From Trichodesmium erythraeum IMS101 (GTDB taxonomy: Bacteria; Cyanobacteriota; Cyanobacteriia; Cyanobacteriales; Microcoleaceae): 32,000 nucleotides of DNA. Position numbers and translations under genes: made by a program. Below are positions 4,558 to 29,799 of the stretch, one piece after another; the stretch's first letter is position 1, and every line of letters starts with the position of its first letter. Location of the stretch: positions 3,840,001 to 3,872,000 of the forward strand of contig NC_008312.1 of the NCBI RefSeq assembly GCF_000014265.1. Reading direction: 5' to 3'. Under the pieces are notes generated by a model. It did not search any database and was not told the DNA's origin. It saw only the letters and a program-made list of their open reading frames with translations.

Positions 4558-4798
4558 TCTCAAAAGTAAGCAGTTGAATTGAGGCTACAACTTGAAGTTG
4601 AGATATTAGAAAAAAAGTTAACTAACAGAAAATTGGCAAAGCTAAAATGTAGCTACCGATTAGATTTGCCATAACTGAGTCTTTTCAGAGCTGTTCCCAT
4701 CTCGATAATGAGAATAAACTACAACCAGATTTAGTTTGGCGACAACAGCGCTATGTTTTTTATTGGTAAGTTTTAATAATATCAAAGGTAAAATAATT

Positions 4799-7700
4799 AT
4801 GCTTGAGTCTTTTGCAATAGTAGCCAGTGGACAATTAGTAGGTTTTCTCGCTAAAGAAGTTCTGGGAAAATTGGCTAAAGAAGCACTTGAAGATTATGTT
4901 AAAGATTTTTTTAAGCAATGTATTACTGATTTTAAAGATAGGATAAGCAATACCAAAAAAAAGCATTTAGAAAAAGCTACTGCAGAAGCTCTGAAAGAAT
5001 TTTTAGAATTAGTACAGCAAGAGTTAGAAGATGCAGATTTAGAGGAAAATCAGTTACAAGAATATAATCAACCTTTGGAACAGTTTCTCAAAAATAAGTT
5101 AGTTAGAGAAACTTTGGGGAGTGCTTTTGATAATAATAGAAAAATTGTAGATACTAAGATATTAGCTAATATTGCTAAAGACATTGTTCCAGATTTGCCA
5201 CCTAATTTTGACTGGCAAAGAGTCGCAAGAAGATATGGCAAAAAAGTTAAAAATATTAGGAATAATTATGATGAATTACGGAAAATATTAGATTCAGAAA
5301 ACCTCGCTCAAATAGCAAATCAAAATTATAAAATTACACCAGAATTTGACCTCAGAAAATATCAAGAAGGTATCCAAGAACAATATGGAAAACTCAAATT
5401 AGAAAGTTTAGATACCAGTGGTTATGGTTATAATGAACTGAAATTATGGGGAATGTTTATTCCTCAAAATGTTCGAGAATCTCAAGAATTTAGGCCTCAA
5501 TTATATGAGGTTCCTAAAGAATATCTCCAACAATTAAAAGAGACGGGGCAGTTAGAGGCAGAATTTTCTCTAGAACAATTGGAAACTGTCCGACGCAGAT
5601 ATTTAGAACAGCCGGCTCGCTCGGTTTTAGAACTAATAGAAAATACCAACTATAAATATTTAGTTATTCTGGGAGACCCTGGTTCTGGCAAGTCTACCTT
5701 ATTACAATATATCGCTTTGGAATGGGCAGAATTACCTCTGAAAGATTTGCCTTTAAAACCAATTCCTCTATTAATTGAACTACGGACTTATGTGAGAAAT
5801 CATGAGACTAATAAATGCCAAAGTTTTCTAGATTTTCTGGAAAAAGGTAGCGGTTTAAATTGCCATTTTCCTCAAAAAGAACTTCATGCAAAACTACAAA
5901 ATGGTGATGCTATTGTGATGTTTGATGGGTTGGATGAAGTTTTTGAACCTGCTAAAAGAAAGGAAATAATTACTGATATTCATCGGTTTACAAATGATTA
6001 TAAAAATGTCCGGGTTATTGTTACTTCTAGAGTAATTGGTTATCAGCCACAACAACTCCGGGATGCTGAATTTTATCATTTTATGTTGCAAGATTTGGGG
6101 TCGGAACAAGTTGAGGATTTTATTCAACGTTGGCATGATTTAACTTATCAAGATGAGCGGGAAAAAGAGCGGAAAAGGGAAAGGTTGAAACGGGCAATTA
6201 ATGATTCTTCAGCTATTAAGCAATTGTCGGGAAATCCTTTGTTATTAACTATGATGGCTATTTTAAATCGTCATCAAGAATTACCGAGAGATAGGGCAGA
6301 ACTTTATAATCAAGCTTCTCGGGTTTTATTACAGCAATGGGATATGGAAAGGGCTTTAGTTGATGCTAAGATTGACCCGATAACTATTGACTATAAAGAT
6401 AAGCAAGAAATTTTGCGCCGAGTTGCTGATTTTATGCAACAAAATAAAGAAGGTTTGGCTGGTAATTTGATTGATGAAAGCAGCTTAGAAAGTATTATTA
6501 AAAAGTATCTAAAAAGTGTAGATATTAATGATGTGAGATTTGTGGCTAGGGCGTTGATGGAACAGTTGCGGGTTAGGAATTTTATTTTGTGTTTTGTTGG
6601 GGGTGGATATTATGCTTTTGTGCATCGAACTTTTTTAGAATATTTCTGTGCTTGGAGTTTTGTTTGGCAGTTTACGGTAACACAAACTCTGGGAAAAGAT
6701 GGGTTGATAAATGATGTTTTTGGTGGTCATTGGCGGGATGAAAAATGGCATGAAGTATTACGGTTAATTTCTGGGATGATAGATGCTAAGTTTGTGGGAG
6801 ATATTATTAGTTATTTGATGGAACAAGATGGGGAAGAGGAAAAGTTTCAGAATTTATTTTTGGCGGGCAAGTGTTTGTCTGAAGTTAGGAGTAGTCAGGG
6901 TATTGGTGATGTGGAAACTCGGTTATTAAATAGGTTAAAAGATTTGACTGGGTATGACCTTGGTTATTTTTATGAATCTTATGATGAAGATGATGAAGAT
7001 GCAGAGTTAGTTCGTGAAATTCGTACTCAAGCTGTGGAAATAGTGGCTACATCCTGGAGGGATGACTCTTCAACTTATGCTTGGCTTAAAGAAAGGGTTG
7101 TGTCTGATGAAAGTTCGTTTGTGCGACGTGAAGCCGTCGGACAAATAGCTACTGGTTGGAAACACGAGCCCGGAATTTTAGAATTACTCAAACAAAGGGT
7201 TGTGTCTGATGAAAGTGAGGATGTGCGAGCTGAAGCCCTCCGACAAATAGCTACTGGTTGGAAACACGAGCCCGGAATTTTAGAATTACTCAAACAATGG
7301 GTTGTGTCTGATGAAAGTGAGTCTGTGCGAGCTGAAGCCCTCCGACAAATAGCAACTGGTTGGAAACACGAGCCGGGAATTTTAGAATTACTCAAACAAT
7401 GGGTTGTGTCTGATGAAAGTCAGCTTGTGCGAGGTGAAGCCCTCCGACAAATAGCTACTGGTTGGAAACACGAGCCCGGAATTTTTGAATTACTCAAACA
7501 AAGGGTTGTGTCTGATGAAAGTTGGCTTGTGCGAGGTGTAGCCCTCCGACAAATAGCAACTGGTTGGAAACACGAGCCCGGAATTTTAGAATTACTCAAA
7601 CAATGGGTTGTGTCTGATGAAAGTGAGGATGTGCGAGCTGAAGCCCTCCGACAAATAGCTACTGGTTGGAAACACGAGCCCGGAATTTTAGAATTACTCA

Positions 7701-8818
7701 AACAATGGGTTGTGTCTGATGAAAGTCAGCTTGTGCGACGTGAAGCCGTCCGACAAATAGCTACTGGTTGGAAACACGAGCCCGGAATTTTAGATTTACT
7801 CAAACAAAGGGTTGTGTCTGATGAAAGTTGGCAGGTGCGAACTGAAGCCGTCCGACAAATAGCTACTGGTTGGAAACACGAGCCCGGAATTTTAGAATTA
7901 CTCAAACAAAGGGTTGTGTCTGATGAAGACTTGAATGTGCGAACTGAAGCCGTCCGACAAATAGCTACTGGTTGGAAACACGAGCCCGGAATTTTAGAAT
8001 TACTCAAACAAAGGGTTGTGTCTGATGAAAGTCAGCTTGTGCGAACTGAAGCCGTCGGACAAATAGCTACTGGTTGGAAACACGAGCCCGGAATTTTAGA
8101 ATTACTCAAACAAAGGGTTGTGTCTGATGAAAGTGAGGATGTGCGAGCTGAAGCCCTCCGACAAATAGCAACTGGTTGGAAACACGAGCCCGGAATTTTA
8201 GAATTACTCAAACAAAGGGTTGTGTCTGATGAAAGTGTGCGTGTGCGAACTGAAGCCCTCCGACAAATAGCAACTGGTTGGAAACACGAGCCCGGAATTT
8301 TTGAATTACTCAAACAAAGGGTTGTGTCTGATGAAAGTGAGGATGTGCGAACTGAAGCCCTCCGACAAATAGCAACTGGTTGGAAACACGAGCCCGGAAT
8401 TTTAGAATTACTCAAAGAAAGGGTTGTGTCTGATGAAAGTGAGGATGTGCGACGTGAAGCCCTCCGACAAATAGCTACTGGTTGGAAACACGAGCCCGGA
8501 ATTTTTGAATTACTCAAACAAAGGGTTGTGTCTGATGAAAGTTGGGATGTGCGACGTGAGGCAGTCAAACAAATAGCAACTGGTTGGAAACAGGAGCCCG
8601 GAACTTTTGAAATATTTTATGACAACGCCCTCAACGATCCCTTTGAACGTAAACATGAATTTCAAGACAACCCTCGACAAACAGCACTAGAAGCAATAGT
8701 CAAACAATACCCAGACCATCCCCAAACCCTCCCACTATTACAAGACAGAGCCGAAAACGACCCAGACAAAAAACTACAGAAATGGGCAAAAAGGATATTG
8801 CAGCAATATACAACATAG
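4799..8818 (+). CDS. NACHT-domain STAND NTPase with a helical N-terminal module and 15 C-terminal 34-aa HEAT-like repeats (paralog 1)
   Basis: Walker A GDPGSGKST (5672-5698), Walker B IVMFDGLDEV, then SGNPLLLTMMA and FVHRTFLEYF motifs typical of NACHT. The C-terminus is VRxEAxRQIATGWKHEPGILELLKQRVVSDESxx repeated 15 times. The ORF track starts at TTG 4736. I prefer ATG 4799 because the segment AAAGG(T/AT)AAAATAATTATG is shared with the paralog's start at 10766. Confidence 0.85.
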   Translation: MLESFAIVASGQLVGFLAKEVLGKLAKEALEDYVKDFFKQCITDFKDRISNTKKKHLEKATAEALKEFLELVQQELEDADLEENQLQEYNQPLEQFLKNKLVRETLGSAFDNNRKIVDTKILANIAKDIVPDLPPNFDWQRVARRYGKKVKNIRNNYDELRKILDSENLAQIANQNYKITPEFDLRKYQEGIQEQYGKLKLESLDTSGYGYNELKLWGMFIPQNVRESQEFRPQLYEVPKEYLQQLKETGQLEAEFSLEQLETVRRRYLEQPARSVLELIENTNYKYLVILGDPGSGKSTLLQYIALEWAELPLKDLPLKPIPLLIELRTYVRNHETNKCQSFLDFLEKGSGLNCHFPQKELHAKLQNGDAIVMFDGLDEVFEPAKRKEIITDIHRFTNDYKNVRVIVTSRVIGYQPQQLRDAEFYHFMLQDLGSEQVEDFIQRWHDLTYQDEREKERKRERLKRAINDSSAIKQLSGNPLLLTMMAILNRHQELPRDRAELYNQASRVLLQQWDMERALVDAKIDPITIDYKDKQEILRRVADFMQQNKEGLAGNLIDESSLESIIKKYLKSVDINDVRFVARALMEQLRVRNFILCFVGGGYYAFVHRTFLEYFCAWSFVWQFTVTQTLGKDGLINDVFGGHWRDEKWHEVLRLISGMIDAKFVGDIISYLMEQDGEEEKFQNLFLAGKCLSEVRSSQGIGDVETRLLNRLKDLTGYDLGYFYESYDEDDEDAELVREIRTQAVEIVATSWRDDSSTYAWLKERVVSDESSFVRREAVGQIATGWKHEPGILELLKQRVVSDESEDVRAEALRQIATGWKHEPGILELLKQWVVSDESESVRAEALRQIATGWKHEPGILELLKQWVVSDESQLVRGEALRQIATGWKHEPGIFELLKQRVVSDESWLVRGVALRQIATGWKHEPGILELLKQWVVSDESEDVRAEALRQIATGWKHEPGILELLKQWVVSDESQLVRREAVRQIATGWKHEPGILDLLKQRVVSDESWQVRTEAVRQIATGWKHEPGILELLKQRVVSDEDLNVRTEAVRQIATGWKHEPGILELLKQRVVSDESQLVRTEAVGQIATGWKHEPGILELLKQRVVSDESEDVRAEALRQIATGWKHEPGILELLKQRVVSDESVRVRTEALRQIATGWKHEPGIFELLKQRVVSDESEDVRTEALRQIATGWKHEPGILELLKERVVSDESEDVRREALRQIATGWKHEPGIFELLKQRVVSDESWDVRREAVKQIATGWKQEPGTFEIFYDNALNDPFERKHEFQDNPRQTALEAIVKQYPDHPQTLPLLQDRAENDPDKKLQKWAKRILQQYTT
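7078..8610 (+). repeat. In-frame tandem array, 15 x 102 bp (34-aa HEAT-like units) inside paralog 1
   Basis: The core caaatagc(t/a)actggttggaaacacgagcccggaattttagaattactcaaacaa(a/t)gggttgtgtctgatgaaagt recurs every 102 nt. Differences cluster in a few codons. Confidence 0.95.
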
Positions 8819-8846
8819 CCATTCCCACAGTTCTGATACACATTTA

Positions 8847-8907
8847 CGATCGCCCTCAAAATGCCACTCAGCTCTCAGCAGGAGACAGGACGATAAAATT
8901 GGCACTT
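8847..8907. repeat. 61-bp dispersed repeat, copy A (29 nt downstream of the paralog 1 stop)
   Basis: cgatcgccctcaaaatgccactcagctctcagcaggagacaggacgataaaattggcactt. It is identical to 10617-10677 except one base (8891 c versus 10661 g). Confidence 0.9.
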
Positions 8908-9055
8908 CAGTGTCATCTAGGGAAATTCCTGCATTACCTAACTCTTGTCTGAGGTCTTCTATTGCTTTAATTACTTCTTCCTTGAAACTACTACAGTAAC
9001 AAAAAGTCACCTGAAACTTTGTATCTATCTCAAACTTTTTAGCTCTTGACTTATA

Positions 9056-9985
9056 TTAAAAATCCTCAAATAAATGCAACCAACTCAACAAATCTTCCAA
9101 ATTATTAAAATCTAAAGAGTCTTCCCCTAAATTATCCAAATGTGCAACTGATAAACCCTCAATTTGACTAGTTATTGCCTCCGGAACTTCTCCAAAACGC
9201 TTTTTAAGTTGACGTATTATTAATTGCCCTCTCCCTTTTTGTTCGCCTTTTTGTTCCCCTCTTCGCTCTCCTTGTTGTTCCGCATAAGTTATCCGTCCTC
9301 TTTCATCTTGCATTGCTATTCCTCGACGCTCAACTATGTCTAACTCTTCCGCTGTCATGTTAATTTTATTAGCAATATTTAAAGCCTTTTCTATTTCCGA
9401 AACTTCTCTTAAATTCTCCGGTATCTCATCTAAACGGCTAGCACTTTTGAGAAAATAAATCCACTTATCACTTAAAGTATGTAACTCAGACAAATTTTTC
9501 TTAAACTTGGGTAATTCTACAAAAAATAGTTGTAATTCTTGTTCCAGAAACTTAAATTTTTTAGTCTCTTGTTGAAAGACAAACTTATTAATTATATCCT
9601 CATTATTTTCAAACAAAATAAAGTCTGTAATTGTTACCCCTATAGCTGGATTCAGCAAGAGATAATCTTCTCCTGTTTCTAATTGATTTGCATAAGCTTT
9701 AGCTAGGTTATAAGCTACTCGTTTATTAAAACCAGTCATTCTAGCAACCTGCATTTCAATCACTACAATAGAACCATCTACTAAAACAGCTTTGATATCT
9801 AAATATGTATCTTTTAAACTCAGCAATTGACCAGGATTAAAAGGATTAGCAATTGTCAAAGACTGAATAATTTTTTTCCCCCCATAAATTATGGCATTGA
9901 GAAAGCTAATCAAGATATCTTGACTTTGTTGCGAACCGAAGATTTTTTTAAAAGCATAATCTATTTTAGGACTAACAAATTTCAT
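9056..9985 (-). CDS. Rpn-family recombination-promoting nuclease / putative transposase (PD-(D/E)XK fold, DUF4351-like C-terminus)
   Basis: The N-terminus MKFVSPKIDYAFKKIFGSQQSQDILISFLNAI and the core DIKAVLVDGSIVVIEMQV are characteristic of this family. A low-complexity GERRGEQKGEQKG linker follows, then a LIIRQLKKRFGEVPE tail. Confidence 0.8.
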   Translation of the reverse strand: MKFVSPKIDYAFKKIFGSQQSQDILISFLNAIIYGGKKIIQSLTIANPFNPGQLLSLKDTYLDIKAVLVDGSIVVIEMQVARMTGFNKRVAYNLAKAYANQLETGEDYLLLNPAIGVTITDFILFENNEDIINKFVFQQETKKFKFLEQELQLFFVELPKFKKNLSELHTLSDKWIYFLKSASRLDEIPENLREVSEIEKALNIANKINMTAEELDIVERRGIAMQDERGRITYAEQQGERRGEQKGEQKGRGQLIIRQLKKRFGEVPEAITSQIEGLSVAHLDNLGEDSLDFNNLEDLLSWLHLFEDF

Positions 9986-10616
9986 GATTTTTTTCTCCTA
10001 ATTAATAATTAAAATTGTCAAATAGTTATCTACAGACTTTATATTTACTAACATTTTTATGATTCTCGTGTACACCATAATTATAACATTTATAGCTGGA
10101 ATATGTCACAATTTTTTAGAGACAACTTGAGGATATAATCTCCTAAAATATCAATTAGGTAATTAACAATTAATAGTACACTTTCTCTCGATATATCTAC
10201 TACTAAATTATCAATTAAAATCATTAATAGTTAATGTGAATATGAAGTATACGTAGATTTACAAAAGGTGCAATATATGTCTAGAGTGTTCAAGAAATCT
10301 TCACTTTTATTGGATTAGTTATGAGACTTTTTGTGATATTATATAAATCTTATAAAATCGAACCATTCTTATTATAAATAGGATGGATGGTACTATTAGT
10401 AGTTAAATCTAATGGTGTGTGCGATCGCCTTATATTTGGGAGGTAAATAATATGGTAAAAAAAGTAATAGATCGAGAGGTTTATTATACTCAGAAACAAT
10501 TACAGGACTTACCCATTTATCATAGGCTATATATAGTGTATTTGCGTAAGTCCTGATACTAAAATCTCAAGTTATCTGAGTTTAAATTTTGAATGTTTTA
10601 TATTTTCCTATTGACG

Positions 10617-10677
10617 CGATCGCCCTCAAAATGCCACTCAGCTCTCAGCAGGAGACAGGAGGATAAAATTGGCACTT
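10617..10677. repeat. 61-bp dispersed repeat, copy B (89 nt upstream of the paralog 2 start)
   Basis: Same sequence as 8847-8907 with one mismatch. Its 5' end sits in a HIP1 site. Confidence 0.9.
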
Positions 10678-10765
10678 ACAGGACTAGGGTAGAACGCTAG
10701 ATATTGACTAAATACAATACCCTTATATTATAATACATAACTAACATATAAAGGATAAAATAATT

Positions 10766-13700
10766 ATGATTGAATGGTTAGTTGCTTGGGGAAGTAGTGA
10801 AGCGGTTAAATTTATTGCTCAGGAAGTTGTTGGAAAGTTAGGGAAGGGTGCTGTTGAAGATTATGTTAAGGATTTTTTGAAGCAAAACATCTCTAATGCT
10901 GTTGCCAGAATAGCAAATGGAGAACCTTTAAAAAAAGCTACTAAACAAGCAATTAAAGATTTTGAGAATTTGGGATATAAAGAGTTAAAAAATACTGATT
11001 TGAGTGAAAGTAAATTAAAGGAATATGATAAATATTTCAAGTCTTTTATTCAAGAGGGGTCTGTTTTAGAGGTTTTAATTAGTGCCTTCGATAATGATGT
11101 GAAAATTTTAGATATTAATAAATTGGCTACTGCCTGGAACAAAATAAATCCACCTTTACCAGATAACTTTGACTGGGATTTTTTGGCAAAGCAACATCAG
11201 AGAAGTGTTAAAGATATTATCCGGAGTTTCCCAGAATTACGGATAATATTAGATTCTAAAAACCTCGATCAAATAGCAAATCAAAATTATAAAATTACAC
11301 CAGAATTTGACCTCAGAAAATATCAAGAAGGTATCCAAGAACAATATGGAAATCTCAAACTAGAAAGTTTAGATACCAGTGGTTATGGTTATAATGAACT
11401 GAAATTATGGGGAATGTTTATTCCTCAAAATGTTCGAGAATCTCAAGAATTTAGGCCTCAATTATATGAGGTTCCTAAAGAATATCTCCAACAATTAAAA
11501 GAGACGGGGCAGTTAGAGGCAGAATTTTCTCCAGAACAATTGGAAACTGTCCGACGCAGATATTTAGAACAGCCGGTTCGCTCGGTTTTAGAACTAATAG
11601 AAAATACCAACTATAAATATTTAGTTATTCTGGGAGACCCTGGTTCTGGCAAGTCTACCTTATTACAATATATCGCTTTGGAATGGGCAGAATTACCTCT
11701 GAAAGATTTGCCTTTAAAACCAATTCCTCTATTAATTGAACTACGGACTTATGTGAGAAATCATGAGACTAATAACTGCCAAAATTTTCTAGATTTTCTC
11801 GAAAAAGGTAGCGGTTTAAATTGCCATTTTCCTCAAAAAGAACTTCATGCAAAATTACAAAATGGTGATGCTATTGTGATGTTTGATGGATTAGATGAAG
11901 TTTTTGAACCTGCTAAAAGAAAAGAAATAATTACTGATATTCATCGGTTTACAAATGATTATAAAAATGTCCGGGTTATTGTTACTTCTAGAGTAATTGG
12001 TTATCAGCCACAACAACTCCGGGATGCTGAATTTTATCATTTTATGTTGCAAGATTTGGGGTCGGAACAAGTTGATAATTTTATTCAACTTTGGCATGAT
12101 TTAACTTATCAAGATGAGGGGGAAAAAGAGCGGAAAAGGGAAAGGTTGAAACGGGCAATTAATGATTCTTCAGCTATTAAGCAGTTGTCGGGAAATCCTT
12201 TGTTATTAACTATGATGGCTATTTTAAATCGTCATCAAGAATTACCGAGAGATAGGGCAGAACTTTATAATCAAGCTTCTCGGGTTTTATTACAGCAATG
12301 GGATATGGAAAGGGCTTTAGTTGATGCTAAGATTGACCCGATAACTATTGACTATAAAGATAAGCAAGAAATTTTGCGCCGAGTTGCTGATTTTATGCAA
12401 CAAAATAAAGAGGGTTTGGCTGGTAATTTGATTGATGAAAGCAGCTTAGAAAATATTATTAAAGATTATCTAAAAAGTGTAGATATTAATGATGTGAGAG
12501 TTGTGGCTAGGGCGTTGATGGAACAGTTGCGGGTTCGTAATTTTATTTTGTGTTTTGTTGGGGGTGGATATTATGCTTTTGTGCATCGAACTTTTTTAGA
12601 ATATTTCTGTGCTTGGAGTTTTGTTTGGCAGTTTACGGTAACACAAACTCTGGGAAAAGATGGGTTGATAAATGATGTTTTTGGTGGTCATTGGCGGGAT
12701 GAAAAATGGCATGAGGTATTACGGTTAATTTCTGGGATGATAGATGCTAAGTTTGTGGGAGATATTATTAGTTATTTGATGGAACAAGATGGGGAAGAGG
12801 AAAAGTTTCAGAATTTATTTTTGGCGGGCAAGTGTTTGTCTGAAGTTAGGAGTAGTCAGGGTATTGATGATGTGGAAAATCGGTTATTAAATAGGTTAAA
12901 AGAGTTGACTGGGTATGACCTTGGTTATTTTTATCAACCATTGTACTTAAGCTTTAGTTCTATTTCTAGGGAAATTTATAGGAAAAATTTAGACTTAGTT
13001 CGTGAAATTCGTACTCAAGCTGTGGAAATAGTGGCTACAACCTGGAGGGACGACCCTTCAACTTATGCTTGGCTCAAACAAAGGGTTGTGTCTGATGAAG
13101 ACTCGGATGTGCGACGTGAAGCCGTCCGACAAATAGCTACTGGTTGGAAACACGAGCCGGGAATTTTAGAATTACTCAAACAATGGGTTGTGTCTGATGA
13201 AGACTCGGATGTGCGACGTGAAGCCCTCCGACAAATAGCTACTGGTTGGAAACACGAGCCCGGAATTTTAGAATTACTCAAACAATGGGTTGTGTCTGAT
13301 GAAAGTGAGTATGTGCGAACTGAAGCCGTCCGACAAATAGCTACTGGTTGGAAACACGAGCCCGGAATTTTAGAATTACTCAAACAATGGGTTGTGTCTG
13401 ATGAAAGTGAGGATGTGCGAGGTGAAGCCCTCGGACAAATAGCAACTGGTTGGAAACACGAGCCGGGAATTTTAGAATTACTCAAACAATGGGTTGTGTC
13501 TGATGAAAATTGGCATGTGCGAACTGAAGCCCTCCGACAAATAGTAACTGGTTGGAAACACGAGCCCGGAATTTTAGAACTACTCAAACAATGGGTTGTG
13601 TCTGATGAAAGTGAGCTTGTGCGAGGTGAAGCCCTCCGACAAATAGCTACTGGTTGGAAACACGAGCCGGGAATTTTAGATTTACTCAAACAAAGGGTTG

Positions 13701-14815
13701 TGTCTGATGAAAGTGAGTATGTGCGAACTGAAGCCGTCGGACAAATAGCTACTGGTTGGAAACACGAGCCCGGAATTTTAGAATTACTCAAACAAAGGGT
13801 TGTGTCTGATGATAGTGAGTCTGTGCGAGCTGAAGCCCTCCGACAAATAGCTACTGGTTGGAAACACGAGCCCGGAATTTTAGAATTACTCAAACAAAGG
13901 GTTGTGTCTGATGATAGTGAGTCTGTGCGAGCTGAAGCCCTCCGACAAATAGCTACTGGTTGGAAACACGAGCCCGGAATTTTAGAATTACTCAAACAAA
14001 GGGTTGTGTCTGATGATAGTGAGTCTGTGCGAGCTGAAGCCCTCCGACAAATAGCTACTGGTTGGAAACACGAGCCCGGAATTTTAGAATTACTCAAACA
14101 AAGGGTTGTGTCTGATGATAGTGAGGATGTGCGACGTGAAGCCGTCCGACAAATAGCTACTGGTTGGAAACACGAGCCCGGAATTTTAGAATTACTCAAA
14201 CAATGGGTTGTGTCTGATGAAAGTGAGTATGTGCGACGTGAAGCCCTCGGACAAATAGCTACTGGTTGGAAACACGAGCCCGGAATTTTAGAATTACTCA
14301 AACAATGGGTTGTGTCTGATGAAAGTGAGTATGTGCGACGTGAAGCCCTCCGACAAATAGCTACTGGTTGGAAACACGAGCCCGGAATTTTTGAATTACT
14401 CAAACAAAGGGTTGTGTCTCATGAAAGTTCGTCTGTGCGAACTGAAGCCGTCCGACAAATAGCTACTGGTTGGAAACACGAGCCCGGAATTTTAGAATTA
14501 CTCAAACAAAAGGTTGTGTCTGATGAAAGTTGGGATGTGCGACGTGAGGCAGTCAAACAAATAGCAACTGGTTGGAAACAGGAGCCGGGAACTTTTGAAA
14601 TATTTTATGACAACGCCCTCAACGATCCCTTTGAACGTATACATGAAATTCAAGACAACCCTCGACAAACAGCACTAGAAGCAATAGTCAAACAATACCC
14701 AGACCATCCCCAAACCCTCCCACTATTACAAGACAGAGCCGAAAACGACCCAGACGAACAACTACAGAATTGGGCAAAAAGGAAATTGCGATCGCTAAAA
14801 AATAACCAGCGCTAG
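10766..14815 (+). CDS. NACHT-domain STAND NTPase with a helical N-terminal module and 15 C-terminal 34-aa HEAT-like repeats (paralog 2)
   Basis: 1349-aa ORF. From about residue 170 onward it is nearly identical to paralog 1 and has the same Walker A/B and NACHT motifs. The first ~170 aa are only distantly similar. Confidence 0.88.
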   Translation: MIEWLVAWGSSEAVKFIAQEVVGKLGKGAVEDYVKDFLKQNISNAVARIANGEPLKKATKQAIKDFENLGYKELKNTDLSESKLKEYDKYFKSFIQEGSVLEVLISAFDNDVKILDINKLATAWNKINPPLPDNFDWDFLAKQHQRSVKDIIRSFPELRIILDSKNLDQIANQNYKITPEFDLRKYQEGIQEQYGNLKLESLDTSGYGYNELKLWGMFIPQNVRESQEFRPQLYEVPKEYLQQLKETGQLEAEFSPEQLETVRRRYLEQPVRSVLELIENTNYKYLVILGDPGSGKSTLLQYIALEWAELPLKDLPLKPIPLLIELRTYVRNHETNNCQNFLDFLEKGSGLNCHFPQKELHAKLQNGDAIVMFDGLDEVFEPAKRKEIITDIHRFTNDYKNVRVIVTSRVIGYQPQQLRDAEFYHFMLQDLGSEQVDNFIQLWHDLTYQDEGEKERKRERLKRAINDSSAIKQLSGNPLLLTMMAILNRHQELPRDRAELYNQASRVLLQQWDMERALVDAKIDPITIDYKDKQEILRRVADFMQQNKEGLAGNLIDESSLENIIKDYLKSVDINDVRVVARALMEQLRVRNFILCFVGGGYYAFVHRTFLEYFCAWSFVWQFTVTQTLGKDGLINDVFGGHWRDEKWHEVLRLISGMIDAKFVGDIISYLMEQDGEEEKFQNLFLAGKCLSEVRSSQGIDDVENRLLNRLKELTGYDLGYFYQPLYLSFSSISREIYRKNLDLVREIRTQAVEIVATTWRDDPSTYAWLKQRVVSDEDSDVRREAVRQIATGWKHEPGILELLKQWVVSDEDSDVRREALRQIATGWKHEPGILELLKQWVVSDESEYVRTEAVRQIATGWKHEPGILELLKQWVVSDESEDVRGEALGQIATGWKHEPGILELLKQWVVSDENWHVRTEALRQIVTGWKHEPGILELLKQWVVSDESELVRGEALRQIATGWKHEPGILDLLKQRVVSDESEYVRTEAVGQIATGWKHEPGILELLKQRVVSDDSESVRAEALRQIATGWKHEPGILELLKQRVVSDDSESVRAEALRQIATGWKHEPGILELLKQRVVSDDSESVRAEALRQIATGWKHEPGILELLKQRVVSDDSEDVRREAVRQIATGWKHEPGILELLKQWVVSDESEYVRREALGQIATGWKHEPGILELLKQWVVSDESEYVRREALRQIATGWKHEPGIFELLKQRVVSHESSSVRTEAVRQIATGWKHEPGILELLKQKVVSDESWDVRREAVKQIATGWKQEPGTFEIFYDNALNDPFERIHEIQDNPRQTALEAIVKQYPDHPQTLPLLQDRAENDPDEQLQNWAKRKLRSLKNNQR
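13065..14598 (+). repeat. In-frame tandem array, 15 x 102 bp (34-aa HEAT-like units) inside paralog 2
   Basis: Same 102-nt unit as in paralog 1. Units at 13797-13898, 13899-14000 and 14001-14102 are identical base for base. Confidence 0.95.
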
Positions 14816-19189: not shown

Positions 19190-19936
19190 CTAGCGCAACG
19201 CAAAATCAGAACGCAACCTCAATTCTAAATCATCCTCTGGATAAATAACAACTACCTCCCCTTCTTCCCGACCCAATAACACTCCACCTAAAGCACCTAA
19301 ACCCGCACCTATTAATATCCTTTCCGTAGCCAGAACCCGATCTCCAAGAACCGCAGATAATAAAGCAGCAGCACCACCACCCACAGCAGCACCCTTCAAG
19401 ATATCCCCAGCGCTTGCACCTTTTGTTATTTCTTCAGTCTCAGTAATTACTTGAGAAACAGCATTAATAGGAAACCTACGGCGATCGCCAATAATTAATT
19501 GTTCAGCAAAAAACTGAGTCCCATTTGAAACAGGTCGTAGTTCACCTTCTATCTCACCACCAAAAGGTATAACCACTCTTCCTTGAGCATCCCTAATATC
19601 TTTAGTCACCCTCAACCTTAACCTCATCGACTCATCTGGAGTTATCACAACCTTTTCTGCTTCCTTATATTCTATAGGAATAAGCTTTCCTGCTCGTATC
19701 CTTGCTACAGACAACGGCCCTCTTGGGTTACCTGGATATCGTCTGTGTTGGTAGCCTGGATATCGTCTTTGTTGGTAGCCTGGGTATTGTCTTTGTTGGT
19801 AGCCTGGGTATTGTCTTGGTCCGTTAAATTGAGCCATAGCTTGTTTTGACATTAAACCAGGAGTTGCTGTAGCTAATGTCATGCCTAAAGTCAACAACAA
19901 AGACGTTCCAGAATGCCAGTTTTTTGAATTAACCAT
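19190..19936 (-). CDS. Hypothetical exported protein with (Q/R)YPGYQQR tandem repeats and a C-terminal glycine-zipper segment
   Basis: Signal-peptide-like N-terminus (SLLLTLGMTLATATPGLMSKQAMAQ). Four 8-aa (24-nt) repeats. C-terminal GAAVGGGAAALLSAVLG...GAGLGALGGVLLG. I recognise no family. Confidence 0.6.
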   Translation of the reverse strand: MVNSKNWHSGTSLLLTLGMTLATATPGLMSKQAMAQFNGPRQYPGYQQRQYPGYQQRRYPGYQHRRYPGNPRGPLSVARIRAGKLIPIEYKEAEKVVITPDESMRLRLRVTKDIRDAQGRVVIPFGGEIEGELRPVSNGTQFFAEQLIIGDRRRFPINAVSQVITETEEITKGASAGDILKGAAVGGGAAALLSAVLGDRVLATERILIGAGLGALGGVLLGREEGEVVVIYPEDDLELRLRSDFALR

Positions 19937-26499: not shown

Positions 26500-28455
26500 A
26501 TGAAAACAGAAGTCAGAAACATTAATACAGAAATATTAGAACATAATTTACAACGAAACTGGCAAGATTTAAAAAAATCTAATGATGTTTGTGAAATTAA
26601 ATGCGACTTAAAGGTAGGAACATTATTGGTTATTTTTCAACATCCAGCAAATGTAGTGATAGATAAGCAAAAAACAATTGCAGAGTTAAAAACTCTAGTT
26701 CAAAAACAGGAGTTAGAATATATAGAAAAAGTAGGTATTTGCTTGAATATAATAGGTCATACATATCCTTATGCTTATCATTCATTTTTTACCAAGGATA
26801 CCTCAGAAGAATCTATGTTCACTTTTCTGCCCAAATGGGTAGATAGAAATATAGATTCTGAAATAAAAATTACACCAGAATTACTAGATTCCTTAGATAA
26901 TCCATTTAGTTTAAAAGATTTAGAAGCAATATCTATGAGACTAGAATCTGAGGGTATGTCTGATACAAATCCTCATCTAATCAATCAGCATATCTCTCAG
27001 GATAAAAGTCAAAATTCAGAAATTAAAATCACTTCAAAAATACTGGATGATTTAGATAATCCTTTTGATATGGAAGGATTAGATTTATCCCCAAAAAAAA
27101 TTAATAGAAAAACTAGGAATTATGTAGAAAAAACATCGCCTATAATCAAAGAATCAACTATTAATTTAGCTGCCTTTTCTCAAGTAGAATTGATTAGCGC
27201 TAGTTTAAGTTTAGCAATTTTAATAGGCTGTTTTTTTGCAATAACTCAACCCTGTGTGATTGGAAAATGTATGATAATATCAACGGCAAAAGAATTAAAT
27301 CAACAATCACTAGAAACAATTAAAAATGTCAAAAATTCTTTGGCTCCAAAGTGGGCACAAGAAAATTTAGAAACAGCAATTAAAAATTTAGAAAAGATTC
27401 CATTTTGGTCAATACATTACTTAGAATCACAAAATTTAAAGTCTACTTACAAAACAGAAAATGAGCATTTGGAAACAATTAGACAAGCTTTGCGTAATGG
27501 TGCACAAGCAGCTCAAAAAAGCAAAGGTTTACCACTACCAATAGAAGAATGGATAGAAATTCAATCACTTTGGCAAGAAGCGATCGCTCTATTAGAAAAA
27601 GTACCAGAAGATAGTAGAGCTTATCCTTTTGCTAAAAATAAACTACAGCAATATCGCAAGTATTTAGTTGCTATTAAAGGAAGATTAACTAGTGAAGAAG
27701 AAGCTAATCAAAAGTTAATAGCGGCGAAAAAATTAGCTCAGTTAGCAGAGACCAGAGAGGTAATAGCTCAATTTCCTGAAAGCTGGAAAAGTGTACATTC
27801 AAACTGGAAAGATGCCTTAGATAAAGTATCTAAGATTCCTCAACAAACAACTGCTTATTTAAAAGCCAAAAATTTACTTTCTCAGTATAAACAAAAACTT
27901 CAGCAAGCAGAGGAACGTAGAATCGTAGAAGAAATTGGTCAAGAGGCTTATAATCAAGCTATTAGTTACTCTAAACAAGCTGAAGTGTTTGAGGCAAAAG
28001 ATAATTGGAGAGATGCTGCAAAATATTGGCAAAAAGCTCTAAATTATGCTGAAGACATACCAACTAATTCAAGTTATTTTATTTCAGCAAAACCTCTGAT
28101 TAAATCTTATGATACTTTGCTAAAAGTAGCACAATCAAACCAAAGGTTATTAGATACTTTAGCAAAAGCTAATCAGGACTTAAATAAGACTTGCAAGGGA
28201 AAACAAAAAATTTGTCAATATAGTGTTACTAAGGATTTAATTACTGTACGTTTGACTTTTGATTATGTAGATAAAATCAAAAAAACAGCTAAAGCAGTGA
28301 AAAATAGTAAAGACAAAAAGAGTCGTACTGAACTCGAAAAACATTTGAAAACTTTAGAGGTTGCTTTAAAGGCTATTAGTAATAATTCTAAGATTCCTTT
28401 AGAACTTTATAACCCACAAGGTTTAAAAATTGCTTCTCATTTTCCCAATAGTTAA
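26500..28455 (+). CDS. Hypothetical membrane-anchored protein with internal repeats
   Basis: 651-aa ORF. It has a duplicated SEIKIT(P/S)xxLDxLDNPF segment and one hydrophobic helix (LISASLSLAILIGCFFAITQP). A helical C-terminal part carries four W..A...L..(I/V)P......Y..(A/S)..L modules. I recognise no family. Confidence 0.6.
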   Translation: MKTEVRNINTEILEHNLQRNWQDLKKSNDVCEIKCDLKVGTLLVIFQHPANVVIDKQKTIAELKTLVQKQELEYIEKVGICLNIIGHTYPYAYHSFFTKDTSEESMFTFLPKWVDRNIDSEIKITPELLDSLDNPFSLKDLEAISMRLESEGMSDTNPHLINQHISQDKSQNSEIKITSKILDDLDNPFDMEGLDLSPKKINRKTRNYVEKTSPIIKESTINLAAFSQVELISASLSLAILIGCFFAITQPCVIGKCMIISTAKELNQQSLETIKNVKNSLAPKWAQENLETAIKNLEKIPFWSIHYLESQNLKSTYKTENEHLETIRQALRNGAQAAQKSKGLPLPIEEWIEIQSLWQEAIALLEKVPEDSRAYPFAKNKLQQYRKYLVAIKGRLTSEEEANQKLIAAKKLAQLAETREVIAQFPESWKSVHSNWKDALDKVSKIPQQTTAYLKAKNLLSQYKQKLQQAEERRIVEEIGQEAYNQAISYSKQAEVFEAKDNWRDAAKYWQKALNYAEDIPTNSSYFISAKPLIKSYDTLLKVAQSNQRLLDTLAKANQDLNKTCKGKQKICQYSVTKDLITVRLTFDYVDKIKKTAKAVKNSKDKKSRTELEKHLKTLEVALKAISNNSKIPLELYNPQGLKIASHFPNS

Positions 28456-28985
28456 AGGAAGAAAAATATCTGAGTATAGTTTTTATAGTGCTTCTCAAAT
28501 TTAGGTTGTGGAGTCTGTATTTAACTGAGATATAAGGTTGATAATTTCCGAGCCAAACTTATTACTATTTAAACCTATATTTTACACTATAAATGTAGCA
28601 TGAAAATATAATTCAAAAGTCATGCATTCAAGGCACCCTCTTGATCTTCTCCACACCCCCATGGGGTAAGTTACCTCAATTTGAAAAAAATTATAGTGGT
28701 CAATAGGATTTAAGGATTCACTAAGTATTTGTACTTAATATATTCCTAAAAACTTTACTCCTGATCAAGGTAAATGAAAATAATTTTTATAGTATAAATA
28801 TTTAACCAAGTTACAGATTTTATACTGATTTTTATGTTACAAATTGAGTTGCAGAATGTGAGTTTCAAAATTGAAAACTCCAGAGTTTTAGTTAGGGATA
28901 CTGGCTCTAGACCACTATGAGTCAGAGAATTCCTGAGCACTCAACTTCATTTTCTGAAGCTCAAAAAAAACTGCGGTATTTTGCC

Positions 28986-29014
28986 TTGCATTCACACAAA
29001 AATTTTGATATCAT
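28986..29014 (+). promoter_or_regulatory. Promoter-like element in repeat unit 1 (TTGCAT-N17-TGaTATCAT)
   Basis: -35-like TTGCAT at 28986-28991, a 17-nt spacer, and an extended -10 TG-a-TATCAT at 29006-29014. Motif match only. Confidence 0.3.
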
Positions 29015-29286
29015 AAAATTACAGTGGAGTAATTCGGGCATTTGCATGATTTTTTCTTCAACCCACTTTTAAGCAACTTAAGAGATATTACTAAAAAACT
29101 TACTAAAAAACTTACTAAAAAAATAGAATAGGTGCAAAAGCCGAACTAACCTGGGTATTGCCAATTAAGAACTTCTGTGGATATATAGGTAATAAGTGAT
29201 AAATCATGATTCAATTATGAGTCAGAGAATTCCTAAGCACTCAACTTCATTTTCTGAAGCTCAAAAAAAAACCGCGGCATTTTCCC

Positions 29287-29315
29287 TTGCATTCACACAA
29301 AAATTTTGATATCAT
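29287..29315 (+). promoter_or_regulatory. Promoter-like element in repeat unit 2
   Basis: Same TTGCAT-N17-TGaTATCAT motif, conserved exactly. Confidence 0.3.
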
Positions 29316-29576
29316 AAAATTAGAGTGGAGTAACTCGGGCATTTGCATGATTTTTTCTTCAACCCACTTTTAAGCAACTTAAGAGATATTACTAAAAAAC
29401 TTACTAAAAAAATAGAATAGGTGCAAAAACCGAACTAACCTGGGTATTGCCAATTAAGAACTTCTGAATGGCTATATAGGTAATAAGTGATAAATCATGA
29501 TTCAATTATGAGTCAGAGAATTCCTGAGCACTCACCTTCATTTTCTGAAGCTTAAAAAAAACCGCGGCATTTTCCC

Positions 29577-29605
29577 TTGCATTCACACAAAAATTTTGAT
29601 ATCAT
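29577..29605 (+). promoter_or_regulatory. Promoter-like element in repeat unit 3
   Basis: Same TTGCAT-N17-TGaTATCAT motif, conserved exactly. Confidence 0.3.
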
Positions 29606-29799
29606 AAAATTAGAGTGGAGTAACTCGGGCATTTGCATGATTTTTTCTTCAACCCACTTTTAAGCAACTTAAGAGATATTACTAAAAAACTTACTAAAAA
29701 AATAGAATAGGTGCAAAAACCGAACTAACCTGGGTATTGCCAATTAAGAACTTCTGAATGGCTATATAGGTAATAAGTGATAAATCATGATTCAATTAT

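Follow-up and report, generated by a model that had tools for sequence, protein, structure and literature searches.

The stretch of Trichodesmium erythraeum IMS101 DNA analyzed here (the window, 32,000 nucleotides of contig NC_008312.1) contains two paralogous genes, A and B, that encode NACHT proteins with HEAT-like repeats and are separated by an Rpn-family nuclease gene (Table 1), which raises the question of whether the three genes form a single defense system or whether the NACHT proteins act on their own, and to what they respond. A sequence-only reading had described two proteins of about 1340 residues, each with 15 repeats of 34 residues, lying about 2 kb apart in the same orientation with the Rpn gene between them; open reading frame, Pfam, and TRF analyses place all of these elements where that reading had them, with 1947 nt between genes A and B on a shared strand. 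The two proteins are 85% identical overall, and the ATG start of gene A is supported by the alignment of homologues, which begins at MxEWL. The tandem arrangement is not an assembly artifact, because it recurs in contigs of independent origin (L001-L006, from a second T. erythraeum assembly and five metagenomes) that extend from the 3' end of gene A across the Rpn gene and into the core of gene B; identity to the window is 99.8% for L001 and 99.3% for L002, the two for which it was measured.

Table 1. Coordinates of features in the window and the basis of each assignment
Feature	Coordinates	Strand	Basis
Left junction, synteny break	4558..4798		blastn, L048-L052 vs window
Gene A, NNH2-NACHT-HEAT(x15) NLR-like STAND NTPase, 1339 aa from ATG	4799..8818	+	Intact ORF; Pfam NNH2, NACHT, HEAT_2; fold match aa 1-759
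Gene A, variable N-terminal helical module, aa 1-158 (first part of Pfam NNH2)	4799..5272	+	61% nt identity to gene B
Gene A, pre-NACHT linker and NACHT module (NBD, helical domains, winged helix)	5273..7075	+	98.2% nt identity to 11234-12934
Gene A, Walker A GDPGSGKST	5672-5698	+	Motif
Gene A, Walker B FDGLDE	5921-5938	+	Motif
Gene A, HEAT array, 15 x 102 nt (34 aa), hypervariable codons 7, 14, 15, 18, 21, 22	7076..8605	+	TRF, repeat table, codon and nearest-neighbor analysis
Gene A, C-terminal cap, degenerate HEAT-like units, ~70 aa, family-conserved	8606..8818	+	tblastn
61-nt direct repeat, left copy, starts with HIP1-like CGATCGCC	8847..8907	+	98% identical to right copy
Rpn-family PD-(D/E)XK nuclease gene, C-terminal DUF4351 (RpnS-like), 309 aa	9056..9985	-	Pfam, NCBIfam
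61-nt direct repeat, right copy, ~90 nt upstream of gene B start	10617..10677	+	98% identical to left copy
Gene B, NNH2-NACHT-HEAT(x15) paralogue, 1349 aa	10766..14815	+	ORF; Pfam
Gene B, HEAT array, 15 x 102 nt, units 8-10 identical	13064..14593	+	TRF, repeat table, nearest-neighbor analysis

Proteins A and B genuinely belong to the NACHT clade of STAND NTPases and show the three-part NLR layout of an N-terminal module, a NOD, and superstructure-forming repeats. This reading, which had been proposed from motifs, holds because the NACHT profile (PF05729) scores 43.9 bits in A and 40.2 bits in B against a cut-off of 26.7, the diagnostic motifs GDPGSGKST and IVMFDGLDEV are found in both proteins, and the predicted fold matches those of NLRC4, NOD2, and NLRP3. 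In 34 homologues, Walker A, the DGLDE of Walker B, TSR, GNPLLL, and FVHRTFLEY are invariant or nearly so, and DGLDE fits the D[GAS]hDE signature given by Kibby et al. The first 46 PDB matches returned by Foldseek for the model of residues 1-759 are all animal NACHT NLRs, the best being NLRC4; the NBD-HD1-WHD-HD2 fold is shared with NLRC4, NOD2, NLRP3, and NAIP5 over about 500 aligned columns (E values from 2.5e-9 to 1e-4). Sequence identity to these animal proteins is, however, 11-17%, HEAT repeats take the sensor position that LRRs hold in them, NNH2 stands in place of CARD or PYD, and no adaptor or caspase partner is known for A or B.

The C-terminal repeats are recognized by the HEAT_2 profile (E = 5e-51 for protein A, 8e-56 for protein B), and their TRF scores (2479 in A and 2324 in B, with 93% matches) are far above chance. 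The 30 repeats of the two proteins are 91% identical in nucleotide and 84% identical in amino acid sequence, but at the six hypervariable positions the codon pairs that differ comprise 1591 nonsynonymous and no synonymous pairs. At these positions pN is 0.39 and pS is 0.016, a ratio of 24 as compared with 0.41 for the other 28 codons; the positions were picked from the same data as the ratio, and independent arrays confirm them, the most variable positions in 19 such arrays, including those of homologues from Planctomycetota and Acidobacteriota, being 12-15, 18, 7, and 22. Only the first and last repeats have as nearest relative their positional counterpart in the other gene, and repeats differ on average by 8.7 mismatches when both are from A, 9.1 when both are from B, and 8.9 when one is from each gene. 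Repeats are thus shuffled inside each gene and from one gene to the other; unequal exchange and gene conversion, at work on both scales, keep the 102-nt units near-identical, and diversifying selection appears to act on four to six codons of each unit. Family members carry arrays of 5 to 28 units. The arrays are followed by the C-terminal cap, which is 46-81% identical in 23 other family loci (tblastn) and in gene A is 98-99% identical to that of gene B up to about position 8728 and 81% identical beyond it. Repeat exchange combined with diversification is the evolutionary regime expected for a receptor whose nonself ligands keep changing, be they cyanophage proteins or other cues of conflict, and the pattern of variation marks A and B as putative fast-evolving recognition receptors.

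The hypervariable positions would probably contact the ligand. A significant sequence match for these repeats was not found in the PDB. The same ...D-x-x-x-x-V-R-x-x-A... helix-turn-helix repeat occurs in the alphaRep binders and the natural PBS-HEAT-like family, with an alphaRep repeat of 31 residues as opposed to 34 here. The randomized positions of alphaRep (18, 19, 22, 23, 26, and 30) are on the concave face and, in crystal structures, are the ones that touch the target; from the DxxxxVR register and the alphaRep consensus, we take these to be positions 14, 15, 18, 19, 22, and 26 of the present repeats, and on that register four of the natural hypervariable sites (14, 15, 18, and 22) coincide with the randomized positions 18, 19, 22, and 26.

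The nearest parallel in mode of evolution is with fungal NLRs that have highly internally conserved repeats, namely HET-D/E/R of Podospora and the NWD family, together with ANK, TPR, and HEAT NLRs (Dyrka et al. 2014). In these, the repeats are about 85% identical in amino acid sequence and variable in number, undergo concerted evolution within and between paralogues, and are under positive selection at about four binding-surface positions per repeat, and near-identical NODs are joined to different N-terminal domains. The present proteins differ in being bacterial HEAT proteins with NNH2 instead of HET, HeLo, or PNP_UDP. In fungi such repeats are regarded as a means of diversification; in bacteria they have been noted for WD and TPR in Cyanobacteria and Actinobacteria, with surveys of ANK, TPR, WD40, and LRR; HEAT is not among the bacterial repeats covered in this literature.

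The exchange of N-terminal domains has a counterpart in gene A. NNH2 (PF22734) is recognized at residues 25-206 in both proteins (E = 4e-59 in A and 4e-54 in B), and the common tripartite layout that had been claimed stands, but the N-terminal modules are not alike, with about 45% amino acid identity over the first ~158 residues; nucleotide identity switches abruptly to 98% at position 5273. The N-terminal segment of gene A is closest to those of two other family members, L007 and L042 (77% nucleotide identity), whereas that of gene B is 93% identical to its ortholog in L045 and 89% identical to L047. In the core, A is closest to B, and its identity to L045 (93.0%) exceeds that to L007 (89.5%). 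Gene A is therefore a chimera in which the first 158 residues belong to a different NNH2 lineage and the body is B-like. The model of the module is all-helical (pLDDT 84-91 for residues 51-160); it matched no structure in the PDB or BFVD, and NNH2 shows no recognizable effector fold or catalytic motif. The module is at most a putative effector, and because NNH2 is encountered almost only ahead of NACHT domains of this kind, its part may be that of an extension with a structural or regulatory task and not that of an output domain.

The tandem genes A and B belong to a large family, found mainly in cyanobacteria, of NLR-type receptors made as single polypeptides. At least five paralogues are present in Okeania KiyG1 and several in each Trichodesmium metagenome-assembled genome, in unrelated genomic contexts, and a homologue in Nostoc PCC 7120 is 57% identical. 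Because the family is multicopy and its positions differ between genomes, these are not strict single-copy core genes, the outcome that a survey of copy number had been proposed to distinguish. The term island proved too strong for the locus. The flanks encode chorismate mutase, SppA, an EamA transporter, a GGDEF-EAL protein, and other housekeeping functions, no recognizable defense island surrounds the locus, and PADLOC (PADLOC-DB v2) gave no credible match to a known system. The closest Trichodesmium relatives (L048-L052) carry the conserved chorismate mutase-SppA-EamA block, but homology ends at about position 4625 (blastn), and gene A sits past this break; none of 80 related EamA loci has NNH2 or NACHT downstream of EamA.

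The architecture itself is already known, since NNH2+NACHT+HEAT_2 is catalogued in clade 2 of Table S1 of Kibby et al. 2022/2023 (e.g. TBR56486.1 of Westiellopsis prolifica). The likeness to that entry covers domain order, Pfam families, NACHT motifs, a cyanobacterial source with multiple paralogues, and the prediction there of HEAT as an "antigen-receptor type" sensor. What is new, relative to the parts of that paper drawn on here, is the hypervariability of repeat positions, which is also family-wide, the shuffling of repeats between paralogues, and the chimeric N-terminal module. As the sequence-only reading had supposed, no functional test of this architecture was found: the Table S1 entry bears no bNACHT test number, and NNH1, but not NNH2, is named in the figure legends on tested proteins. 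The proteins chosen for experiments in that study were mainly those close to E. coli ones, and bacterial NACHT proteins protect against phage, protection being lost on mutation of Walker A. An anti-phage role for A and B would be suggested by analogy with these proteins.

The most likely function of A and B is that of a pair of single-gene nonself sensors, and we consider it reasonably probable that they are NLR-type STAND receptors in which HEAT provides sensing and NNH2 the output, with the Rpn gene separate. Each protein would work alone as a STAND switch. The C-terminal HEAT solenoid would bind the ligand, and its specificity would depend on a few residues where the second helix of each repeat begins; binding would release autoinhibition of the NACHT ATPase and allow nucleotide exchange and oligomerization, which in turn would gather the N-terminal helical NNH2 modules to produce an output that might most plausibly be growth arrest or cell death of a nonenzymatic kind. 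The N-terminal module is exchangeable, as gene A, with the module of another lineage on a B-like body, shows.

An unlikely alternative, although the best placed of those considered, is an endogenous, non-immune STAND switch in which the HEAT solenoid binds a component of the host (phycobilisome or phycobiliprotein parts, for instance, like the PBS-HEAT proteins NblB and CpcE/F) and NACHT controls a physiological response. The best NCBIfam match of the repeats is indeed NblB (E = 9e-26), but its 91 bits against a cut-off of 300 reflect only the generic repeat motif, and homologues from non-phototrophic Planctomycetota and Acidobacteriota carry the same kind of 102-nt array. The housekeeping neighbors and the lack of a defense-database match would suit such a switch, and an old family broadly kept in filamentous cyanobacteria is also compatible with a non-immune signaling role; a pN/pS ratio this high at predicted binding positions, the wide range of unit numbers, and the differing genomic positions are, however, unexpected for a fixed endogenous ligand.

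Trichodesmium is filamentous and forms colonies, a lifestyle that would suit allorecognition or colony-level programmed cell death, that is, discrimination of self from nonself filaments or altruistic death within colonies instead of phage sensing, as a counterpart of the fungal HET-D/E NACHT-WD incompatibility genes. The shuffling between paralogues, the selection at few surface positions, and the similar NODs with different N termini are what is seen in those fungal genes, and expansions of NACHT paralogues are concentrated in multicellular bacteria according to Kibby et al. This role is nevertheless improbable, more so than that of an endogenous switch: there is no sign of polymorphic partner loci, the receptors are cytoplasmic as judged by the lack of an evident signal peptide or transmembrane segment in the sequence, filaments do not fuse their cytoplasm as fungal hyphae do, and all bacterial NACHT proteins tested to date acted against phage (Kibby et al.).

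The proposal of one system of three genes, in which Rpn would be the nuclease effector of the sensors or an enzyme promoting their recombination, is very improbable: although the genes adjoin one another, the arrangement is kept in L001-L006 and in one related metagenome-assembled genome (L045), and Rpn proteins of E. coli promote recombination and defend against phage (Zhong et al. 2023), the gene is on the opposite strand and transcribed divergently, the 40 other family loci, with arrays equally conserved and shuffled, have no Rpn homologue in the surrounding sequence (up to 10 kb, as far as each contig reaches), the second B-type gene of MAG_R02 (L047) also lacks one, and Rpn with DUF4351 is a self-sufficient, toxin-antitoxin-type module (Zhong et al. 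2023). Nor is any other neighbor conserved across the family, none being present in more than 8 of 41 loci. The Rpn protein is assigned to PDDEXK_2 (E = 8e-49) and DUF4351 and to the NCBIfam "Rpn family" (TIGR01784), and resembles the anti-phage RpnL/RpnS nucleases in having a full-length PDDEXK_2 domain and, at the C terminus, the DUF4351 domain that is equated with RpnS (Zhong et al. 2023); an internal start site, toxicity, and a part in defense are putative for it. The gene has no conserved link with the NACHT genes and is a separate, self-contained module and an unrelated later arrival between A and B in the Trichodesmium lineage. The segment that carries it is bracketed by the 61-nt direct repeats, none of which would be expected by chance, and both copies are also present in L001-L006.

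Genes A and B, the tandem paralogues that lie on the same strand with an Rpn-type gene between them on the other, are found as ORFs in a window of about 33% G+C that also carries cyanobacterial housekeeping genes (see table). Pfam profiles match NNH2 ("NACHT N-terminal Helical domain 2") at E 4e-59 in A and 4e-54 in B, NACHT (PF05729) at 43.9 and 40.2 bits, where 26.7 is the cut-off (the match spans positions 2-165 of the 167 in the profile), and multiple HEAT_2 units at E 5e-51 and 8e-56, respectively. TRF resolves the 102-nt arrays into 14.9 and 15.0 copies with 93% matches; at the protein level there are exactly 15 HEAT units of 34 aa per gene, so that each protein has at its C terminus the superstructure-forming repeats that the NLR layout requires. 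The sequence-only reading had described these ORFs, domains, and repeat units, with Rpn lying between the paralogues, and it is borne out in all particulars. Long antisense ORFs within the arrays, such as that at 13063..14403 on the minus strand, are by-products of the repeats.

Coordinates of the genes, of the segments compared between A and B, and of related tandem pairs
Feature	Position	Strand	Description
Gene A	4799..8818	+	1339 aa, ORF listing
Rpn-type gene	9056..9985	-	309 aa, ORF listing
Gene B	10766..14815	+	1349 aa, ORF listing
A vs B, flanks			nt identity at random level
A vs B	4799-5255		nt identity about 62%
A vs B	5273-6955		nt identity 98%
A vs B, replaced patch	6956-7028		nt identity 59%
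A vs B, HEAT arrays			nt identity 90-97%
A vs B	8529-8728		nt identity 98-99%
A vs B, last ~90 nt			nt identity 81%
Repeat-less/HEAT NNH2-NACHT tandem pairs (Okeania, other Trichodesmium)	L013 7660-13615; L031 315-4777; also L009, L023

The Walker A motif of gene A, GDPGSGKST (aa 292-300), fits GxxxxGK[ST]; in an alignment of 34 homologues (57-84% identity), its residues Gly292, Pro294, Gly295, Gly297, Lys298, and Ser299 are invariant, as are Asp376, Leu378, Asp379, and Glu380 of the Walker B motif (FDGLDE, aa 375-380). TSR (aa 409-411), GNPLLL (478-483), and FVHRTFLEY (607-615), which we take to be sensor 1, the GxP motif, and the WHD histidine, respectively, are also conserved, all being invariant or nearly so. 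In both proteins FDGLDE matches D[GAS]hDE, which in Kibby et al. is the signature separating NACHT from other STAND clades. The fold predicted by AlphaFold2 for aa 1-759 of A (pLDDT 72.5) is like that of animal NACHT NLRs, which account for all of ranks 1-46 in a Foldseek comparison with the PDB, with about 500 aligned columns; the best match is NLRC4 (4kxf, E 2.5e-9), and NOD2, NLRP3, NAIP5, and NLRP1 are also among these first 46. A and B are accordingly NACHT-clade STAND NTPases, in which the NBD precedes a helical domain and a winged-helix extension. The earlier proposal of an NLR-like sensor is upheld by a NACHT score above the cut-off, the signature motifs, and the NLR fold matches, and the profile searches place the central domain in NACHT and the repeats in HEAT_2.

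The relationship between the two genes changes along their length. Over the initial 474 nt, the genes that group with A are L007 and L042 (77%), and those that group with B are the B-type genes L045 (93%) and L047 (89%). Over the 446 nt that follow, A and B share 98.2% identity, and A has a higher identity to L045, the B-type orthologue (93.0%), than to L007 (89.5%). This phylogenetic incongruence between the N-terminal and following segments argues that gene A is a chimera or the recipient of a gene conversion, with an N-terminal module from one lineage and a body from the B lineage; the breakpoint, at aa 158, is near the C-terminal end of a confidently modelled helical bundle (aa 51-160). 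A fresh tandem duplication would account for the tandem arrangement but not for flanks, first 474 nt, and last ~90 nt that have diverged around an interior that is 98% identical and incongruent, a combination that indicates gene conversion or a chimera. An assembly artefact is ruled out by independent T. erythraeum contigs, one of which (L001, from GBRTRLIN201, GCA_018457135.1) matches window positions 8247-13261 at 99.76%.

Exchange is also evident within the HEAT arrays. When the nearest relative of each unit was sought among the other 29, the positional counterpart was nearest only for the cap units, A1/B1 and A15/B15; for all 26 internal units (13 per gene) the nearest unit occupies a non-homologous position in the same or the other gene, and no difference separates units B8, B9, and B10. 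On average, two units differ by 8.7 mismatches within A, by 9.1 within B, and by 8.9 when one is taken from each gene, and the units of the two genes form one pool. Among complete family members, array length ranges from 5 to 28 units between paralogues and species; in other T. erythraeum samples the short-read contigs end within the arrays. The 30 units together have 91.3% nucleotide and 84.0% amino acid identity over 510 aa per gene, with a mean amino acid identity of 86.5% for the internal units. Highly internally conserved (HIC) repeats have been defined by an identity between units of at least about 85% across 100 aa or more (Dyrka et al. 2014), a definition within which the arrays of A and B fall by identity, being borderline when the cap units are counted.

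The variation that does occur is concentrated at unit codons 7, 14, 15, 18, 21, and 22, at which there are 0 synonymous and 1591 nonsynonymous codon pairs, as opposed to 459 and 782 at the other 28 codons. By the method of Nei and Gojobori, pN is 0.388 and pS 0.016 for the six codons (a ratio of 24, for codons picked from the same data), whereas the ratio is 0.41 for the remaining codons and 0.46 for the NACHT core of A versus B. Across 19 arrays from other family members, including two that are non-cyanobacterial, between-unit entropy is highest at positions 12-15 and 18, and then at 7 and 22. Positions 14, 15, 18, and 22 flank the invariant Val16-Arg17 at the start of the second HEAT helix. 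When aligned with the alphaRep consensus in the D-x-x-x-x-V-R register, they correspond to alphaRep positions 18, 19, 22, and 26, which are randomised, lie on the concave face, and make target contacts in crystal structures (alphaRep paper). No significant PDB match was obtained by sequence for the N-terminal half, for the complete HEAT region, or for a segment of four repeats. Diversifying selection may act on a few positions of a putative binding surface, as judged from pN/pS values for codons picked from the same data and a surface assigned by analogy with alphaRep. Mutagenesis of the DGR type was considered as a source of the variation and discarded because the variation is not adenine-specific (the consensus base is A at 11 of 34 variable columns and at 32 of 102 columns overall); no reverse transcriptase was found among the scanned ORFs of the window.

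The suggestion that the paralogues and Rpn constitute a single island or system does not hold, since the link with Rpn is lineage-limited, no neighbour is constant, PADLOC yields nothing credible, and the flanks are of a housekeeping character. A scan of species-representative genomes, whose hits do not include the source genome, gave 41 loci with family relatives, in Trichodesmium, Okeania, Dapis, and other Microcoleaceae and in one Planctomycetota and one Acidobacteriota MAG; when public assemblies were queried for the exact sequence of gene B, no record was returned. An Rpn homologue is nearby only at L045, the gene B orthologue of a Trichodesmium MAG, and in the T. erythraeum contigs L001-L006; none is present beside any other family locus in flanks of up to 10 kb, where the contig allows, and Rpn was dropped as a conserved neighbour. 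Clustering of all ORFs gave no conserved partner gene, no neighbour family being present in more than 8 of the 41 loci; those that recur (ABC ATPase, kinase-FGE-sulfatase, hybrid histidine kinase, and oxidoreductase) reflect the synteny of Okeania strains. A search of the three proteins against PADLOC-DB v2 gave no credible match and only P-loop- or repeat-level noise, the best E values being 5.3e-6 for B, with no single significant stretch, and 7.9e-5 for A. The flanks encode chorismate mutase, SppA, an EamA transporter, a GGDEF-EAL protein, a BadF-type ATPase, an S1-domain protein, a dienelactone hydrolase, and a GntR regulator; Rpn is the only candidate defence gene, and the region does not qualify as a defence island. 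Neither an Rfam search of the whole window nor a search for tRNA genes returned anything, and there is therefore no tRNA-linked integration site.

The Rpn protein matches PF12784 (PDDEXK_2; positions 1-228 of 229, E 8e-49), PF14261 (DUF4351; 1-59 of 59, E 8e-21), and the NCBIfam "Rpn family" model TIGR01784 (159.7 bits, cut-off 52.1). Rpn with a DUF4351/RpnS tail is a self-contained anti-phage module of the toxin-antitoxin type in E. coli (Zhong et al. 2023). A 61-nt direct repeat (8847-8907 and 10617-10677, 98% identical), which starts with a HIP1-like CGATCGCC, brackets the 1.7-kb Rpn segment and, of the loci compared, is shared by contigs L001-L006 of T. erythraeum alone; this repeat fits the location of Rpn on a separately acquired segment and may mark how this was acquired. 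A 78-aa ORF (8774-9010, minus strand), which is a called gene in GCA_018457135, overlaps both the 3' end of gene A and the 61-nt repeat; beyond the first ~35 aa it does not look protein-like, and it may be a gene remnant.

On the left, the CM-SppA-EamA block is kept in many cyanobacteria, and of 80 metagenomic loci, about half have SppA beside EamA and none has an NNH2/NACHT gene downstream of EamA. The closest Trichodesmium relatives, in which EamA is 85-89% identical, match the DNA of the window only as far as about 4625, and their EamA is followed by Tgt and CobS (contig L052) or by a split AAA_15/AAA_21 ATPase together with a deacetylase (L049); the site downstream of EamA may be a variable spot for conflict genes. 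At L049 2051-4274, the site equivalent to that of gene A, the split ATPase is OLD/AbiEii-like and is accompanied by an unknown 251-aa ORF. No right-hand "island" border is definable by synteny, as the related contigs share nothing with the window downstream of EamA. In Trichodesmium MAG_R02, the A-type orthologue is beside a phytase/PhoD gene and the B-type beside a gamma-glutamyltranspeptidase gene. Okeania KiyG1 has at least 5 copies and SIO2C9 at least 3. By these distributions, the NACHT genes are accessory, dispersed, and multi-copy rather than strict single-copy core genes, each behaving as a stand-alone gene.

The model of the NNH2 module is all-helical, with a confident bundle at aa 51-160 (pLDDT 84-91), but Foldseek searches of the PDB and BFVD gave nothing below E 0.3, and a fold like that of HeLo, MLKL, or CC domains is unsupported, the MLKL N-terminal domain appearing only at E 4. 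When aa 1-175 were run with HMMER against the full set of 1.84 billion representatives, only 235 clusters matched at E ≤ 0.001, the matches nearly always starting from about residue 1. All eight of the long representatives checked are NNH2-NACHT proteins with NNH2 at the N terminus, and seven also have HEAT_2; NNH2+NACHT+FGE-sulfatase is also present in Table S1 of Kibby et al. NNH2 therefore travels with this kind of NACHT and with alternative sensors of the "antigen-receptor type." NNH2 might be an output device or, alternatively, a regulatory extension. One NNH2-NACHT representative, P0152 (1290 aa), has a ~580-aa extension, with no Pfam match, N-terminal to NNH2; this may represent an effector in fused form, which might give a clue to the connections of NNH2. 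In some relatives (see table), a 770-782-aa NNH2-NACHT gene lacking repeats is located ~30-70 nt directly upstream of an NNH2-NACHT-HEAT gene, a recurrent arrangement that is reminiscent of sensor/helper NLR pairs and differs in type from the A/B pair.

We consider it reasonably probable that A and B are two autonomous STAND receptors, in which the concave HEAT surface would bind variable nonself ligands, binding would lead to oligomerisation through NACHT, and oligomerisation would elicit an output mediated by NNH2 that is probably non-enzymatic. A role in anti-phage defence is plausible, both by analogy and from the evolutionary signature. Trichodesmium is a globally important marine nitrogen fixer, the bloom collapse of which involves poorly understood processes of cell death and viral infection. 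Less probable alternatives are that the proteins act in allorecognition or in cell death within colonies, or that they have an endogenous regulatory function. The most far-reaching version of the former, which we regard as improbable, is that A and B are bacterial het-type allorecognition or "germline antigen-receptor" loci, in which a pool of HEAT cassettes is re-dealt between tandem paralogues to give each Trichodesmium lineage a private recognition set; NNH2 would be a new non-enzymatic executioner of cell death, like plant CC or fungal HeLo domains, and the system would govern colony self/non-self recognition or bloom-terminating death, together with or instead of phage defence.

The interpretation of A and B as autonomous receptors can be set against what is known of related proteins. 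NNH2+NACHT+HEAT_2 is already listed in clade 2 of Table S1 of Kibby et al.; that paper also reports that several bacterial NACHT proteins protect E. coli from phage in a Walker A-dependent manner and that cyanobacteria have up to 23 NACHT paralogues. In fungal NLRs, it is well described that HIC repeats undergo concerted evolution, that their number varies, that some four positions on the surface are under positive selection, and that different N-terminal domains are attached to near-identical NODs. The reshuffling of repeats within and between paralogues is shared by A and B. HIC repeats in bacterial NLRs have been noted earlier for WD and TPR, and surveys over all domains of life have covered ANK, TPR, WD40, and LRR. 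The locus is therefore a clear HEAT-type bacterial case of a known phenomenon in a known family and not a new kind of system. It provides a clean natural case of a bacterial NLR-type family whose putative recognition surface probably evolves, as in fungal NLRs, by cassette shuffling and diversifying selection, with four to six candidate specificity residues per repeat and a putative border for exchange of the N-terminal module at aa 158.

It should be noted that L011, L012, L015, L019, L020, L027, and L001-L006 are short-read contigs that end inside 102-nt arrays. Because contigs break there, family members are often reported as "partial" (~780-890 aa) and MAG surveys under-count repeats, so that such array genes are systematically truncated in surveys based on short-read assemblies. 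Elsewhere in the window, three tandem non-coding units of ~290 nt (28916-29799, 95% matches) each contain promoter-like TTGCAT-17 nt-TATCAT boxes and an internal (TTACTAAAAAAC)n tract; they have no Rfam match and could be tandem small-RNA genes. Two ORFs have no Pfam match, one of 651 aa (26500-28455, plus strand) and one of 248 aa (19190-19936, minus strand) with PGYQQR-type repeats near its N terminus. A perfect heptanucleotide array, (CAATCTC) x 8.9, occupies intergenic positions 1550-1611.
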